A stretch of DNA of 64,000 nucleotides from Flavobacteriaceae bacterium (GTDB lineage: Bacteria; Bacteroidota; Bacteroidia; Flavobacteriales; Flavobacteriaceae). The position numbers were made by a program, and so were the translations under genes. The notes beneath the pieces are model-generated. The model had not been told where the DNA came from. It was given only the letters and a program-made list of their open reading frames with translations, and did no database searches. The DNA is taken from the NCBI GenBank assembly GCA_034005285.1, contig JAVEUZ010000010.1, positions 619 through 64,618 on the forward strand. Reading direction: 5' to 3'. Every line of letters starts with the position of its first letter. The stretch's first letter is position 1. This document shows positions 32,301-36,417 of the stretch, one piece after another.

Positions 32301-32679
32301 GGAACAACGCAGGTTGCGGGAACAGTTGCAGGATGCACTGCAGAAACAAGGCATGACACCCGACGGTAAAAAGGTTTTAGACCAGATGAAAGATGCTGAA
32401 AAGCAGTTGTTGAACAAAGGCTTTAAAAACGAAGTCTTGCAGAAGATTTTAAATATACAGTACGAAATGCTAAAGCTTGAAAACGCCATTCAGCAGCAGG
32501 GAGAAGACGAAAAACGCCAGTCTGAAACCAACAGAAAAGAATTTAACAGCAATGCGAATGCCTTGTCGCCTGCACTTCAGGATTATTTGAACAGTATTGA
32601 AATTTTAAACAGACAAACATTACCTTTGCGGTCGCATTATAACCAAAAAGTACAACAATATTTTAAGTCAAATGATTAG
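29347..32679 (+). CDS. DUF4175-like membrane-anchored coiled-coil protein
   Basis: 1110 aa. N-terminal TM helices, Ig-like middle (VVKDQYP.I), long Q/E/K-rich coiled-coil tail. Overlaps the ybeY start. Family assignment from memory. Confidence 0.65.
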   Translation: MNKINLIYHKLEQFVRKYYTNELLKGLILFVGIGLLYFFFTLLVEHFLWLNTSGRTVLFWLFIAVELFLLFRFILFPLFKLFHLQKGITNADASKIIGNHFPEVGDKLINFLQLSESREQSELLLASIEQKATALQPVPFANAVSFKKNVKYLPWALIPLLIWSVFLISGNGNILADSMNRVVKYNEKFSPPAPFSFVIQNQDLQAEQNKDFVLQVKSEGKIVPENVMIAIGEESYYMESVKPGLYEYRFVKPSKSVAFHLQANQVVSPDYQLQVVETPTIANFEMLLQFPGYLNRKSESVKGSGNAIVPEGTKVTWKVKAQATETIEWADESKSATFQKVDSDFLLSQNISQNTDYQILTSNNRIKHYEKLQYKISVVKDQYPTINVNPAPDSLKLNRNVLVGQVSDDYGLSKLQIVYYPKGNEDKAQKTALNVKKEVFDRFVYVFPGKLPVEEGVSYDFYFEVFDNDVLHGYKSTRSGVFSDRLATQEEKEDQLLQDKNNNLNSLQKSLKNQDKQLSELDKLQKLNKEKNSLEYKDRQKIDDFIKRQKQQEQMMKEFSKKLEDNLKEFKPDEQDSKKEALQERMQNAEKEAEKNEKLLDELQRLSEKMQEEDLFDKMDQFKQSSKNQMKNLEQLVELTKRYYVEKKAEQLADKLDKLGDKQEKLADDKNNNTDKQEELNKEFDKIKEELRDLEKENNDLKKPMDIPTDEKQEKSIDEDQQKATDELQKENQDGAKPKQKSAGQKMKQMGGQMMEAMGGGQMEQLQEDARMLRQILDNLLAFSFTQEDLMKQFRGLKKGAPSYNKYLKEQQNLKQQFRHIDDSLFALSLRNEKITEQITEEIGNVHYNVDKSLETLAEAMIPKGVSHQQYTISAANRLADFLSDIMNQMQMQMSGSGSGGEGMPMPGQGQGAGKQLPDIIQKQKGLGEKMKEGMEKQGEDGEGKEGDNGKQKGNQKGQQQGEGQGGGGNGDGEENARELMEIYKEQRRLREQLQDALQKQGMTPDGKKVLDQMKDAEKQLLNKGFKNEVLQKILNIQYEMLKLENAIQQQGEDEKRQSETNRKEFNSNANALSPALQDYLNSIEILNRQTLPLRSHYNQKVQQYFKSND

Positions 32680-33091
32680 CTTTCATTACGAAATCAATTT
32701 TGAATTTTTTTCAGAAAAATCTTATAAATATTGGATTTCTAAAGTTATTGCATCAGAAAGCAAAGAGTTGGGCGAAATAAACTATATTTTTTGCGACGAC
32801 AGCTATCTTTTGAAAATCAATCAAGATTATCTTAACCACGACACTTATACGGATATTATAAGTTTTGATTACAGTAAAGGAAATATCTTAAGCGGTGACA
32901 TCTTTATTTCTGTTGAAAGAGTTAGGGATAACGCACAGGATTTTGGAGTGAGCTTTGATGAAGAACTACGTAGAGTAATGGCTCACGGAGTGTTGCATTA
33001 TTGTGGTTACAAAGACAAAACCGAAGCTGACCAAAAATTTATGCGACAAAAAGAAAACGAAAAAATAAAAATGTTCCACGTGGAACAGTAA
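32672..33091 (+). CDS. ybeY: rRNA maturation endoribonuclease YbeY
   Basis: YLNHDTYTDIISF, GDIFIS and HGVLHYCGYKD metal-binding motifs. Confidence 0.95.
   Translation: MISFHYEINFEFFSEKSYKYWISKVIASESKELGEINYIFCDDSYLLKINQDYLNHDTYTDIISFDYSKGNILSGDIFISVERVRDNAQDFGVSFDEELRRVMAHGVLHYCGYKDKTEADQKFMRQKENEKIKMFHVEQ
33072..33087. promoter_or_regulatory. parS centromere site 1 (inside the ybeY 3' end)
   Basis: Perfect palindrome TGTTCCACGTGGAACA matching the parS consensus tGTTNCACGTGNAACa. Confidence 0.85.
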
Positions 33092-33196
33092 TAGAGAGAA
33101 TAGAGAATAGAACATAGAAAAAAGATTTCAAACCCTCGTCAGTTTTCCCTCACGTTATTCTAAATCTATAAAAGTATAAGAATGACAAAACGAACT

Positions 33197-33229
33197 CCCC
33201 TCTCTTTTGGAGAGGGGTTGGGGGAGAGG
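33197..33229 (+). repeat. REP-like palindromic element
   Basis: CCCCTCTC-TTTTG-GAGAGGGG hairpin followed by TTGGGGGAGAGG. Resembles a REP type seen in Bacteroidota (recalled, not searched). Confidence 0.5.
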
Positions 33230-33238
33230 AAAAGACAA

Positions 33239-33254
33239 TGTTCCACGTGGAACA
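33239..33254. promoter_or_regulatory. parS centromere site 2
   Basis: Perfect TGTTCCACGTGGAACA. Confidence 0.85.
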
Positions 33255-33260
33255 ACAGTC

Positions 33261-33286
33261 TGTCATTGCGACGAACGAAGCAATCT
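33261..33286 (+). repeat. REP-like hairpin, copy 1 (cassette leader)
   Basis: TGTCATTGCGACGAACGAAGCAATCT; 23/26 identical to 33892-33917. Confidence 0.7.
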
Positions 33287-33300
33287 AAAAAATATAAATT

Positions 33301-33851
33301 ATGCACGAATATACTTCTATTTATGGTTATATAAAAATATATCCCAGCAGTCGTTTAGATTCATATAGTAAGGCTGTTGATTTTATTAAAAGTCTTGGAA
33401 AAGATGAATCATATCCGTTTATTAATTCTAATATGTTTAGTTTTGGAGATTGTGAAATTCCATATTATTATGAAGATATTATGCTTGGTTTTGCCTCTAC
33501 TTATAAATATTTTGGTTATGAATTAAAAGATTGGAATCGTTTTGTATTAAAAATAGAAAATATACTTCGTAATATTGATTTTGAAAATGCACAATTTCAT
33601 ATTGATAGTGCTTGGGGAGAATTTACGATGTATTGGCAATCAAAAAAAATCTTACAAGATTATTAACGAATGAAGAGTTAAAAGAAAAAACTACAAGATT
33701 TACAGAAACAGAAGAGTGGTATTTTGGTTTTGGCAAAAGAACCCCTGATATTGGTTGGTTAGAAGATGAAAAATATGATGAAGAAATGGAGGGTTTAAGA
33801 AGTGAAAAATATGATTTTATTGGTTTCAAATATCCAATACCTAAAAAGTAA
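33301..33851 (+). pseudogene. Orphan ~183-aa protein split by a 1-nt frameshift in an A8 run (ORFs 33301-33666 and 33612-33851)
   Basis: Adding one A at 33642-33649 gives ...YWQSKKNLTRLLTNEELKE...FKYPIPKK*. AT-rich, acidic/aromatic composition. Confidence 0.65.
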
Positions 33852-33863
33852 TAAAAAATAAAA

Positions 33864-33879
33864 AGTTCCACGTGGAACA
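33864..33879. promoter_or_regulatory. parS centromere site 3
   Basis: AGTTCCACGTGGAACA, one mismatch to the palindrome. Confidence 0.75.
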
Positions 33880-33891
33880 AAAACTATACTT

Positions 33892-33917
33892 TGTCATTAC
33901 GAGGAACGAAGTAATCT
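33892..33917 (+). repeat. REP-like hairpin, copy 2 (cassette leader)
   Basis: TGTCATTACGAGGAACGAAGTAATCT; compensatory G-C to A-T change versus copy 1. Confidence 0.7.
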
Positions 33918-33930
33918 AAAATAATATAAA

Positions 33931-34374
33931 ATGGGAGCAGTAGGATTAGAGCTTAAATTTATATTTGATAAAATTGAGCCGATTGAAAAATATTTAGAAT
34001 TAAGAGAAAAATATAATTTTGATGCTCGTAATGGTTTAAATTTAATTATGACAGGAGAACATTGGTCTGAAATTGAAGATGAAGGAAGGTTAATGACAAT
34101 GTTAGAAAAAAAGCTAAATATTGATTTGTCCATTTTAGATTATTGGAATGAAGATGATAATGGCAATTTTGTAGATTTAGATTTGTTACTACCTAAATTG
34201 GTTGAATTTAAAAATTGCATTCAAAATAATCCTGATTTTTATAAAGAAATTTTATATAATATTGAAGATTATTATTTGAAAGAACAATTAAAAAGGGATA
34301 TTGAATTTTTAATTGAACGAGTGAATTTTAATATCCAAAACGGAGCAAAAAAAGTAAGATTTGAAACATTATAA
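33931..34374 (+). CDS. Hypothetical acidic protein (147 aa), low-GC cassette gene
   Basis: Intact ORF with an A-rich leader. No recognisable motif. Confidence 0.7.
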   Translation: MGAVGLELKFIFDKIEPIEKYLELREKYNFDARNGLNLIMTGEHWSEIEDEGRLMTMLEKKLNIDLSILDYWNEDDNGNFVDLDLLLPKLVEFKNCIQNNPDFYKEILYNIEDYYLKEQLKRDIEFLIERVNFNIQNGAKKVRFETL

Positions 34375-34410
34375 ACGATTGAACAAATCAACGATTAAAC
34401 CAAAAAAACA

Positions 34411-36279
34411 ATGTTTAGTGAATACGATGTAATAGTAGTAGGAGGAGGACACGCAGGTTCGGAGGCGTCTGCCTCGTCTGCCAATATGGGTTGTAAGACG
34501 TTGCTGATAACGATGAGTTTGCAGAACATAGCCCAGATGTCGTGCAATCCTGCAATGGGAGGGATTGCAAAAGGGCAGATTGTTCGGGAAATTGATGCAC
34601 TCGGAGGGTATTCGGGCATTGTTTCGGATAAAACGGCTATTCAGTTTAGAATGTTGAACAAGTCCAAAGGACCTGCAATGTGGAGTCCGAGAGTGCAGAG
34701 TGACAGAATGCGTTTTGCAGAAGAATGGAGATTGATGTTGGAGCAGACACCAAACCTCGATTTTTATCAGGAAATGGTAAAAGGCATTATGGTCGAAAAC
34801 GGAAAAGTAACGGGAGTTATTACCAATTTAGGTATTAAAATCAGAGCAAAAGCAGTGATTTTAACCAACGGAACTTTCCTGAACGGGCTTATCCATATAG
34901 GGGAAAAGCAGTTCGGAGGAGGCAGGGCAGGAGAGGGAGCGTCTTACGGAATTACCGAAGATTTGGTTAATCTCGGCTTTGATGCAGGACGTATGAAAAC
35001 GGGAACACCACCTCGTGTGGACGGACGTTCGCTTGATTTTTCTAAGATGGAAGAGCAGCCCGGAGACGAAAAACCGAGTAAATTTTCTTATTTGGATATT
35101 ACAAAACCGCTCACCAAACAGCGTAGTTGTTTTATGACCTATACTTCACAAACAGTACACGATTTGTTGCGTGAAGGATTTGATCGTTCGCCTATGTTTA
35201 ACGGAAGAATTAAAAGTATAGGACCAAGATATTGTCCGTCTATTGAGGATAAAATCAATCGTTTTGCAGACAAAGAAAGACATCAAATTTTCGTTGAGCC
35301 GGAGGGTTGGAATACGGTCGAGGTTTACGTAAACGGATTTTCGACTTCCTTGCCCGAAGACATACAGTTTAAAGCCTTGCGTTCTGTTACCGGTTTTGAA
35401 AACGTAAAATTTTTCAGACCGGGTTATGCAATTGAGTATGATTATTTTCCTCCGACACAACTAAAATATACACTCGAAACAAAACTGGTCGAAGGACTGT
35501 TTTTTGCCGGACAAATAAACGGCACGACAGGTTATGAAGAAGCAGCCTCTCAAGGTTTGATGGCGGGGATTAATGCGGCTTTGCAGGTTCAGGAAAAAGA
35601 ACCGTTTGTTTTAAAGCGTGATGAGGCTTATATTGGTGTTTTGATTGATGATTTGATAACAAAAGGAACAGAAGAACCATATAGAATGTTTACTTCTCGT
35701 GCCGAATACAGAACGTTGCTCCGTCAGGACAACGCAGATTTCAGACTTACACCGATGTCTTACCAAATAGGTTTGGCAAAAGAAGACAGAATGCGTAGAA
35801 TGGAACAAAAATTGGTTGCGTCAGAAAAGATGGTAACGTTTATGAAGCAAACAAGCATTTCTCATAATGTTGTAAATCCGTTATTGGCTGAAAAGGGCAG
35901 TTCGCTGATGTCACAAACCGATAAATTGTTTAAGGTTTTTTCTCGTCCGGAAATTGATTTTGAAGATATTCTGAGTTTTGATGCTATCAAAGAGTATGTG
36001 TCTGAACATGATTTAGACCCTGAAATTGTTGACCAAGCATTGATTCAGGTAAAATATTCGGGTTATATTGAGAAAGAAAAACAAAGTGCTGACAAGATTA
36101 AGAGATTAGAAGATTTAAAAATACCTACCAATTTTGATTATGACAAAATTAAGTCTTTGTCGCATGAAGCGAGAGAAAAACTAAAAAGAATCTGTCCGGA
36201 AACAGTATCACAAGCCTCCAGGATCAGCGGAATTTCTCCGACAGAAATTTCCTTACTTTTGATATATATGGGACGTTAG
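34411..36279 (+). CDS. mnmG: tRNA uridine 5-carboxymethylaminomethyl modification enzyme MnmG (GidA)
   Basis: DVIVVGGGHAGSEA FAD motif, MSCNPAMGGIAKG, GPRYCPSIEDK, AGQINGTTGYEEAA and EEPYRMFTSRAEYR. Confidence 0.97.
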   Translation: MFSEYDVIVVGGGHAGSEASASSANMGCKTLLITMSLQNIAQMSCNPAMGGIAKGQIVREIDALGGYSGIVSDKTAIQFRMLNKSKGPAMWSPRVQSDRMRFAEEWRLMLEQTPNLDFYQEMVKGIMVENGKVTGVITNLGIKIRAKAVILTNGTFLNGLIHIGEKQFGGGRAGEGASYGITEDLVNLGFDAGRMKTGTPPRVDGRSLDFSKMEEQPGDEKPSKFSYLDITKPLTKQRSCFMTYTSQTVHDLLREGFDRSPMFNGRIKSIGPRYCPSIEDKINRFADKERHQIFVEPEGWNTVEVYVNGFSTSLPEDIQFKALRSVTGFENVKFFRPGYAIEYDYFPPTQLKYTLETKLVEGLFFAGQINGTTGYEEAASQGLMAGINAALQVQEKEPFVLKRDEAYIGVLIDDLITKGTEEPYRMFTSRAEYRTLLRQDNADFRLTPMSYQIGLAKEDRMRRMEQKLVASEKMVTFMKQTSISHNVVNPLLAEKGSSLMSQTDKLFKVFSRPEIDFEDILSFDAIKEYVSEHDLDPEIVDQALIQVKYSGYIEKEKQSADKIKRLEDLKIPTNFDYDKIKSLSHEAREKLKRICPETVSQASRISGISPTEISLLLIYMGR

Positions 36280-36313
36280 AAAACAGAACATAGAGAAAAG
36301 ACTCTAACAACAA

Positions 36314-36369
36314 CGTCAGTTCGAGTGTTTTTTGCGAAATGTAGTGTAGAAAAGAATGTATCGAGAACC
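36314..36369 (+). repeat. REP-like interspersed element after mnmG
   Basis: GTCAGTTCGAGTG...GTATCGAGAAC arms. Resembles a Flavobacterium intergenic repeat (recalled). Confidence 0.4.
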
Positions 36370-36401: not shown

Positions 36402-36417
36402 TATTTCACGTGAATCA
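36402..36417. promoter_or_regulatory. Degenerate parS site 4
   Basis: TATTTCACGTGAATCA, two mismatches to TGTTTCACGTGAAACA. Confidence 0.5.

Follow-up and report, generated by a model that had tools for sequence, protein, structure and literature searches.

How does a spacer between two core genes come to hold unrelated small genes, each behind the same palindromic module, with no integrase beside them? The question is raised by the interval between ybeY and mnmG in a 64,000-nt stretch of a Flavobacteriaceae genome (the window; the assembly comprises 2.6 Mb in 100 contigs and is estimated to be 95% complete). The original prediction described here two AT-rich orphan genes, each preceded by a palindrome of the parS type (the binding site of the partition protein ParB), a hairpin, an A-rich leader and an ATG, as well as a second copy of the ybeY 3' end, and proposed an integron-like hotspot in which parS-containing repeats serve as insertion or exchange sites. 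All of these elements are present, and comparison with relatives supports the idea that the interval is a gene-content hotspot in one subclade. Nevertheless, the palindromes are an ordinary, predicted centromere and the hairpin is an ordinary repetitive extragenic palindrome (REP). It is their combination into a gene array that appears to be new in the light of the literature searched, and the array is probably turned over by homologous exchange between the repeats themselves.

Gene content of the ybeY–mnmG interval

In the window the interval starts within ybeY (32672–33091, plus strand; Pfam PF02130, E = 2.5e-29), which encodes endoribonuclease YbeY and whose last codons (..MFHVEQ*) overlie parS1 (TGTTCCACGTGGAACA, 33072–33087). 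Next come a copy of a second dispersed repeat, REP-B (CTCCCCTCTCTTTTGGAGAGGGGTTGGGGGAGAGG, 33195–33229, plus strand), parS2 (TGTTCCACGTGGAACA, 33239–33254) with the first copy of the REP-like hairpin (TGTCATTGCGACGAACGAAGCAATCT, 33261–33286, plus strand), the frameshifted cassette gene 1 (33301–33851, plus strand), parS3 (AGTTCCACGTGGAACA, 33864–33879) with a second hairpin copy, hairpin' (TGTCATTACGAGGAACGAAGTAATCT, 33892–33917, plus strand), and cassette gene 2 (33931–34374, plus strand), which codes for an acidic protein of 147 aa. The right border of the hotspot is formed by the conserved mnmG (gidA; 34411–36279, plus strand; GIDA Pfam families on its orthologue at locus L031). Both modules have the same order, i.e. 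parS, 6–12 nt, hairpin, a 14–15-nt A-rich leader and the ATG, and the open reading frames (ORFs) of the two cassettes have a GC content of 27% and 24% as compared to 32% in ybeY and 41% in mnmG.

The sequence AAAAATAAAAATGTTCCACGTGGAACA at the ybeY end (33061–33087) is repeated, with one T fewer, at 33854–33879, where 11 nt of the ybeY 3' flank, AAAAATAAAAA, stand again in front of parS3. As this 11-mer has a frequency of only 2.6e-5 per position across the genome, the match is not due to chance, and parS3 thus seems to have arisen by local duplication of the site at the ybeY end. An A-run lies 5' of each parS on the plus strand (33061–33087, 33229–33254 and 33854–33879).

Of the two orphan genes originally described, gene 2 stands, whereas the first is a fragment of a longer gene. 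Two overlapping ORFs (33301–33666 and 33612–33851) together make up a reading of 183 codons that is broken, by an apparent frameshift, at an A8 run (33642–33649), and as full-length homologues of 158–185 aa cover 97–100% of this joined reading, gene 1 is a single gene.

The cassette-bearing subclade consists of this genome and eight other genomes or contigs, and its genus is probably Flavobacterium. An assignment to Chryseobacterium was rejected, identity being 82% for S7 and 47% for ferritin. Within the subclade the first 150 aa of MnmG are 87–99% identical to those of this genome, as compared to 80–88% in gene-free relatives. Modules of ~50–70 bp (parS, spacer, hairpin and AATCTAAA) separate small, AT-rich ORFs for acidic proteins, each gene being bounded by parS and usually having a hairpin upstream. 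Locus L031 (metagenome-assembled genome CAYVUB01) has parS1, a ~55-bp 3' remnant of gene 1, parS–hairpin and gene 2 (88% identity), while L034 has parS1, a degenerate parS2–hairpin, an intact gene 1 and parS3–hairpin. In L035, parS1, parS2 and gene 1 are followed by parS3–hairpin', an unrelated gene for 163 aa (geneX) and parS4. L038 (G204, CAYPCZ01) combines parS1, REP-B, parS2–hairpin, a gene for a 434-aa geneX::DUF6985 fusion, parS3–hairpin, a 204-aa DUF6985 paralogue and a degenerate parS4; both of its genes end in KKWWQFWK* directly 5' of parS. L068 (G355) has parS1, REP-B, parS2–hairpin, a 407-aa fusion, parS3–hairpin' and a new 200-aa gene. Thus, REP-B occupies the same position between parS1 and parS2 in L038 and L068 as in the window and is absent from L035. 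The remaining loci are L039 (CAKUPQ01), with parS1, parS2..hairpin, genes for 196 and 85 aa, an inverted hairpin pair and parS3; L047, with a DUF6985-type gene, parS–hairpin and a new 172-aa gene; and L048, with parS1, parS2–hairpin, a new 144-aa gene and parS3.

In an all-against-all blastp comparison the cassette ORFs of these nine loci fall into nine unrelated families. The expectation that gene content would vary among relatives while the parS–hairpin leader is kept is therefore borne out in the subclade, which supports the view of the interval as a gene-content hotspot there. The exact parS–hairpin pattern was found in 3 of 185,579 species genomes and in two metagenome contigs, always at ybeY–mnmG.

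Junctions and movement of the modules

Gene 1 of this genome and gene 1 of L035 are ~82% identical, but the two loci share a block of 118 nt with 100% identity that takes in the final 43 nt of gene 1 with the stop codon, as well as parS3, spacer, hairpin and AATCTAAAAT. Past this block gene 2 and geneX of L035 share nothing, and identity returns only at AAACGATTGAAC before mnmG. A fully identical block in a background of ~82% identity argues for recent exchange. Moreover, three different genes (in this genome, L035 and L068) have the same AT-type module in front of them and two different genes have it behind them, and module types switch between the first and the second position among loci. 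This reshuffling of modules and genes, together with the sharp junctions, points to repeated recombination inside or at the modules. A fixed link of the module type to the upstream or to the downstream gene was considered and rejected, being inconsistent across loci, i.e. the boundary of a cassette is not polarisable.

Outside the clade the cargo is found without the module. Homologues of gene 1 in Chryseobacterium are located at a conserved YCII–DUF5995 site and homologues of gene 2 at three unrelated sites, in all cases without parS or hairpin. Gene 1 is 55–59% identical to proteins from Chryseobacterium and Mucilaginibacter, although housekeeping proteins of this genome are just 38–47% identical to those of Chryseobacterium. 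Judged from these sequence identities, the cargo is horizontally acquired and appears to move between distant lineages.

One array is ectopic. It lies beside a carboxyl-transferase gene on metagenome contig ERR13725800_1369 (L072:3930–4640) and contains a gene ending in KKWWEFWK*, a decayed parS (AAACCCCACGTAAAACA), a hairpin, an 81% homologue of geneX, and again a decayed parS with a hairpin; geneX is followed by repeats that resemble the mnmG leader. No array is present beside the carboxyl-transferase gene at the corresponding place in this genome. A piece of the array, modules included, has therefore moved at least once, which hints that modules can travel with genes. Thus, the proposal that cassette homologues elsewhere would carry the same leader fails outside the clade, where the module is absent, and holds for this one array with its decayed parS.

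Cassette genes and their products

Gene 1 belongs to a conserved family of ~175 aa with 45 homologues, the best reaching 77% identity across 99% of the joined protein. For gene 2 we found, besides the window's own protein, six homologues in other records, including the 88% identical one at the same locus in CAYVUB01. AlphaFold2 (AF2) models are available with predicted local distance difference test (pLDDT) values of 88 for the gene 1 family and 84 for gene 2, and the fold search that had been envisaged for both proteins gave no Foldseek match in the PDB below E = 0.15. Profile searches of the cargo against PDB sequences were likewise without a match, and gene 1 has no Pfam hit. In Pfam, NCBIfam and PADLOC nothing was recognized in the cargo except DUF6985 in cassettes of relatives and a sub-threshold UDG hit, and the UniRef label 'DUF600' on one distant gene 1 match was not confirmed by Pfam.

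Nearly all cassette proteins are acidic (pI 4.4–5.3) and free of hydrophobic segments. Their composition had been taken to resemble that of immunity proteins, a conjectural assignment: DUF6985 is the only domain recognized, and neither known folds nor defence systems were matched. The cargo can be described as small, acidic, soluble proteins, and to ascribe to them a function in immunity or of the antitoxin type is guesswork.

All cassettes run in the direction of ybeY and mnmG, and no plus-strand terminator was found between ybeY, the cassettes and mnmG; the cassettes are therefore probably transcribed by read-through from ybeY. On the minus strand, the parS palindrome together with the T-run scores as an intrinsic terminator, and antisense transcription into ybeY may be blocked.

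The palindromes as predicted chromosomal centromere

The palindrome GTTCCACGTGGAAC occurs at 33073, 33240 and 33865 (three observed, 0.1 expected), and the entire assembly has no parS site besides these three. Two of them read TGTTCCACGTGGAACA and one reads AGTTCCACGTGGAACA, both of which fit the 16-bp palindromic parS consensus. The consensus of chromosomal parS is TGTTNCACGTGAAACA, with TGTTCCACGTGGAACG as a variant in Myxococcus (PMC7022226), from which TGTTCCACGTGGAACA differs by one base.

We compared the ybeY loci of 49 relatives, i.e. a first set of 29 (24 from the same genus and five from other families of the order) and the 20 closest by YbeY. All 49 have parS at the ybeY 3' end or in the ybeY–mnmG spacer. 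In the first set, this genome included, parS is located at or after the ybeY end in 30 of 30 loci from six families, and the ybeY–mnmG gaps of this set hold arrays of 1–8 copies with a spacing of ~45–70 bp. In each of the eight complete or high-quality relatives every parS of the genome lies within ~2.7 kb at ybeY–mnmG, including one or two sites past mnmG. These latter sites, ~1.9–2.3 kb beyond the ybeY end, are perfect in the relatives and degenerate in this genome, where TATTTCACGTGAATCA (36402–36417, in the spacer directly past mnmG) matches at 14 of 16 positions. As parS is found at ybeY–mnmG in all 49 relatives and, in this genome and the eight complete or high-quality ones, nowhere else, it marks a predicted centromere and is not a cassette-specific site. 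The three palindromes are thus the predicted ParB-binding centromere of the chromosome, which is positioned at ybeY–mnmG throughout the Flavobacteriales: at the ybeY 3' end, in the ybeY–mnmG spacer and just past mnmG, usually as a tandem array free of genes.

In all same-genus loci a parS is found between −9 and −15, counted from the end of ybeY. The palindrome encodes the YbeY C-terminus ..(M/L)FHVE(Q/R)*, which is kept in those same-genus relatives whose ORFs were read. Across the genus, one stretch of DNA is thus both coding sequence and predicted centromere site. The ybeY–mnmG gap measures 7–632 bp and is free of genes in 47 of the 49 relatives' loci; the gene-free spacer is the ancestral state. 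Hence, of the claim that parS-containing repeats act as insertion or exchange sites, the part on exchange is supported by junctions that lie at modules, whereas parS as such is foremost a predicted centromere that occurs in gene-free arrays of 1–8 copies in nearly all relatives.

Chromosomal parS clusters are known from B. subtilis, C. glutamicum, P. aeruginosa (parS1–4) and M. xanthus (22 sites), and the present cluster resembles them in the 16-bp palindrome and in the presence of several copies at one conserved locus. It differs in that one site lies inside the coding end of ybeY, in that the sites alternate, in this subclade, with protein genes that are not the same in all genomes, and in that the cluster is located away from parAB and dnaA (0.2–1.2 Mb in complete relatives). 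In complete relatives G008, G010, G020, G028 and G037, parB is 0.2–1.2 Mb from the sole parS cluster. Such a distance of parS from both parB and dnaA is unusual as compared to the classical dnaA–gidA–parAB origin region. Four 9-mers resembling DnaA boxes (TTATCCACA, ≤1 mismatch) occur within 1 kb at 1000–2000 of the window, 32 kb upstream of the parS cluster, and GC skew shows no switch of sign across the window.

The hairpin and other dispersed repeats

The 26-nt hairpin TGTCATTRCGASGAACGAAGYAATCT is found at 33261–33286 and 33892–33917 (two observed, zero expected). Its stem of 5 bp is weak (−1.4 to −3.7 kcal/mol, the latter being the RNA fold energy of the first copy), and the two copies differ by a compensatory change in the stem, ATTGC/GCAAT versus ATTAC/GTAAT, with ATTCC/GGAAT as a further version in G011. 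This genome has ~7–9 copies, depending on mismatch tolerance; away from ybeY–mnmG they either lie 16–119 nt upstream of ordinary genes, such as MurD-like and GH65-like ORFs, and are oriented like these, or make up an inverted pair between genes. Across the genus the number of copies ranges from 0 to 65 per genome, often in inverted pairs ~60 bp apart, and no copies were found in 16 other genera tested. A scan of 32500–34600 against Rfam gave a single chance match (E = 4.3), and the hairpin is not in Rfam. It is thus a genus-wide, dispersed REP-like repeat that is mostly located upstream of housekeeping genes, and the idea of the hairpin as a cassette-specific site has to be given up. One or two hairpin copies each are also present in the gene-free ybeY–mnmG spacers of two other lineages, L063 and L066 (G153 and G092), with no cassette.

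With REPs and bacterial interspersed mosaic elements (BIMEs) the hairpin shares its nature as a short imperfect palindrome, the intergenic, dispersed and lineage-specific distribution and the frequent inverted pairs. Two near-identical genes of the REP-associated tyrosine transposase (RAYT) type (Y1_Tnp) are encoded outside the window (C43:33212–33481 and C48:33556–33825). A link between RAYT and the hairpin was rejected, as both genes are flanked by another palindrome, CCGCAAAGTCAGGAGACTTTGCGG(AGCGGGG). In this respect the hairpin differs from REPs and BIMEs, and it also differs in being fused to parS at this locus in fixed order and orientation.

REP-B has the consensus CCCCTCTC-N4-GAGAGGGG followed by TTGGGGGWGAGG, and nine copies exist genome-wide, including copies on contigs C7, C20, C71, C79, C83 and C88. 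A third repeat family (ACGTCAGTTCGAGTGTTTTTTGCGAAATG ... AATGTATCGAGAACC) is found 3' of mnmG (36313–36369 of the window), and a similar copy adjoins a hairpin on contig C83.

Comparison with integrons and recombinase search

The genome encodes nine tyrosine recombinases of family PF00589, none of them on the 65-kb contig that contains the window (C8). There is no transposase on this contig, and no recombinase Pfam family was detected among the called genes of the related loci. Thus, the absence of an integrase or transposase from the neighborhood, already noted for the window, extends to the entire contig.

The array is reminiscent of the cassette arrays of integrons (IntI, attI, attC) in its co-directional, apparently promoterless small ORFs with a repeated palindromic element between them, its variable cargo and its sharp junctions. 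In integrons the attC sites are imperfect palindromes of 57–141 bp at the 3' end of the cassette. Here, the module consists of a perfect 16-bp parS and a REP with a 5-bp stem, i.e. of a centromere site and a dispersed repeat. It lies 5' of each ORF, and in this genome no repeat follows the last cassette. Moreover, no integrase is adjacent, and the arrays hold only one or two units. What remains of the integron-like hotspot is therefore the hotspot of variable genes, whereas the integron features, namely a recombinase on the contig and an attC-like module, are missing.

The closest described analogue in the same phylum is rAID-1 (recombinase-associated acquired interbacterial defence), arrays of orphan immunity genes known from Bacteroidales (Ross et al., 10.1101/471110). 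These integron-like arrays have a 5' XerD-like recombinase that is >44% identical to BF9343_RS08045, are defined by at least two co-directional downstream genes, a GC content of ≤41% and repetitive intergenic sequence, show homology to type VI secretion system (T6SS) immunity genes, comprise up to 31 genes and reside on mobile elements (10.1101/471110). The present locus shares with them co-directional small genes of low GC content (24–27%), repetitive intergenic sequence and strain-variable content. In contrast to rAID-1, neither a XerD-like recombinase nor homology to T6SS immunity was found here, and the locus is part of a predicted centromere instead of a mobile element.

How is the array turned over?

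We consider it probable that the interval is a recombination hotspot on the direct repeats of the centromere, which were extended by REP insertion and act as portable homology for homologous exchange. According to this model, REP-like hairpin copies beside parS would have created direct repeats of ~50–70 bp in one subclade, and small, AT-rich ORFs acquired horizontally would have settled between them. Turnover would then occur via homologous recombination, gene conversion or slippage between modules within the array: unequal crossing-over or slippage might yield deletions as in L031 and duplications as in L038, and incoming related DNA could be patched in through the modules or through flanking ybeY and mnmG sequence, without the involvement of a dedicated integrase. 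Gene 1 with its frameshift would be decaying in this genome. In its general behavior the locus would resemble known recombination hotspots between core genes, i.e. an integration hotspot flanked by core genes. That homologous recombination drives the turnover is what we infer from the arrangement of repeats and junctions.

Several points weigh against this explanation or against the centromere on which it builds. The sharp junctions where the hairpin ends on its 3' side would fit a site-specific crossover as well, and as no gene, either upstream or downstream, is tied to one module type, many events or crossovers within the modules are needed. The ectopic array of L072 is not explained by simple allelic replacement. 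The nine loci sampled come from species that are considerably diverged. As to the centromere, dnaA is 0.5–1.2 Mb from parS in the five complete relatives named above, and no ParB_N domain was found in this assembly. ParB was found in 39 of 41 relatives altogether and in 24 of 24 from the same genus; its absence here is probably due to an assembly gap.

The fixed junctions behind the hairpin and the ectopic array speak for a true integron-like system, in which parS and hairpin together would form an attC-like site, a recombinase encoded elsewhere or an activity associated with ParB would move units of gene and module, and each gain would bring or duplicate a parS. Variable and constant sequence always adjoin immediately behind the hairpin's AATCTAAA, upstream of at least seven different genes, the number of parS sites roughly equals that of the cassettes plus one or two, the tail of one gene in L038 was duplicated together with its parS, and the array at the unrelated locus of L072 retains its modules, although parS has decayed. 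Co-directional cassettes with no terminator between them and the precedent of rAID-1 arrays in the phylum (10.1101/471110) point in the same direction. Still, we regard such a system as rather unlikely: the 65-kb contig lacks a recombinase, the repeat that flanks the two RAYT genes is another one, homologues of the cargo outside the clade have no module, the hairpin with its weak stem is a general REP upstream of housekeeping genes, arrays of parS without any gene reach eight copies, and the exact module is restricted to ybeY–mnmG in the few genomes and contigs listed above. A variant in which the centromere doubles as a platform for gene capture is unlikely, too. Here, parS and REP would be attC-like in the absence of a linked integrase, a recombinase acting in trans or the ParB/SMC complex would aid, units of gene and parS module would be inserted, swapped and exported, and the ectopic array would be the footprint of such an export.

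Exchange may also have come to an end, in that an ancestor of the subclade gained a multi-gene island in the centromere spacer and today's differences reflect differential loss and divergence. What is left of gene 1 after deletion in L031, its frameshift in this genome and the confinement of all cassette-bearing loci to one subclade, as delimited by MnmG identity, are in line with this scenario. It would, however, require an ancestral array of at least nine families, whereas no extant locus exceeds two units, and it leaves the AT-type module in front of three different genes, the 118-nt identical block, which points to recent exchange, and the horizontal spread of cargo families across bacterial families to be accounted for. 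We therefore consider loss alone quite unlikely. Finally, the small proteins might be tied to the function of the centromere, e.g. by modulating ParB, the loading of SMC or replication, and their position would then be selected for regulation by ParB spreading. The spreading of ParB over flanking DNA is well established, and the genes lie within ~60 bp of parS on both sides, which makes for positional evidence only. Yet the cargo families are mutually unrelated and freely replaced, their homologues occur elsewhere in unrelated contexts, 47 of the 49 relatives manage with gene-free loci, and gene 1 is broken in this genome, rendering a centromere-linked function very improbable. Thus, homologous exchange between modules built on the centromere repeats is the explanation that we favor.

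Implications

Our literature search brought up no paper that deals with parS in Flavobacteriia or with DUF6985 and, as far as the searched literature shows, a cassette-like array with fast gene turnover inside a centromere has not been described. The predicted centromere of Flavobacteriales would be anchored at ybeY–mnmG, remote from parAB and dnaA, with one parS within the DNA that codes for the YbeY C-terminus. As the locus is flanked by two core genes as anchors and is smaller than 2.5 kb, it should be amplifiable by PCR from environmental Flavobacteriaceae. Arrays of parS are usually treated as purely structural DNA for the loading of ParB and SMC; here, such an array hosts accessory genes with fast turnover in a defined lineage, and the junctions of exchange lie at the centromere repeats. 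If the model is true, repeated cis-elements that are essential can give rise to a cassette-like shuffling of genes with no integrase, and the ybeY–mnmG interval would be a tractable locus for the question whether ParB-bound DNA promotes recombination or protects from it.

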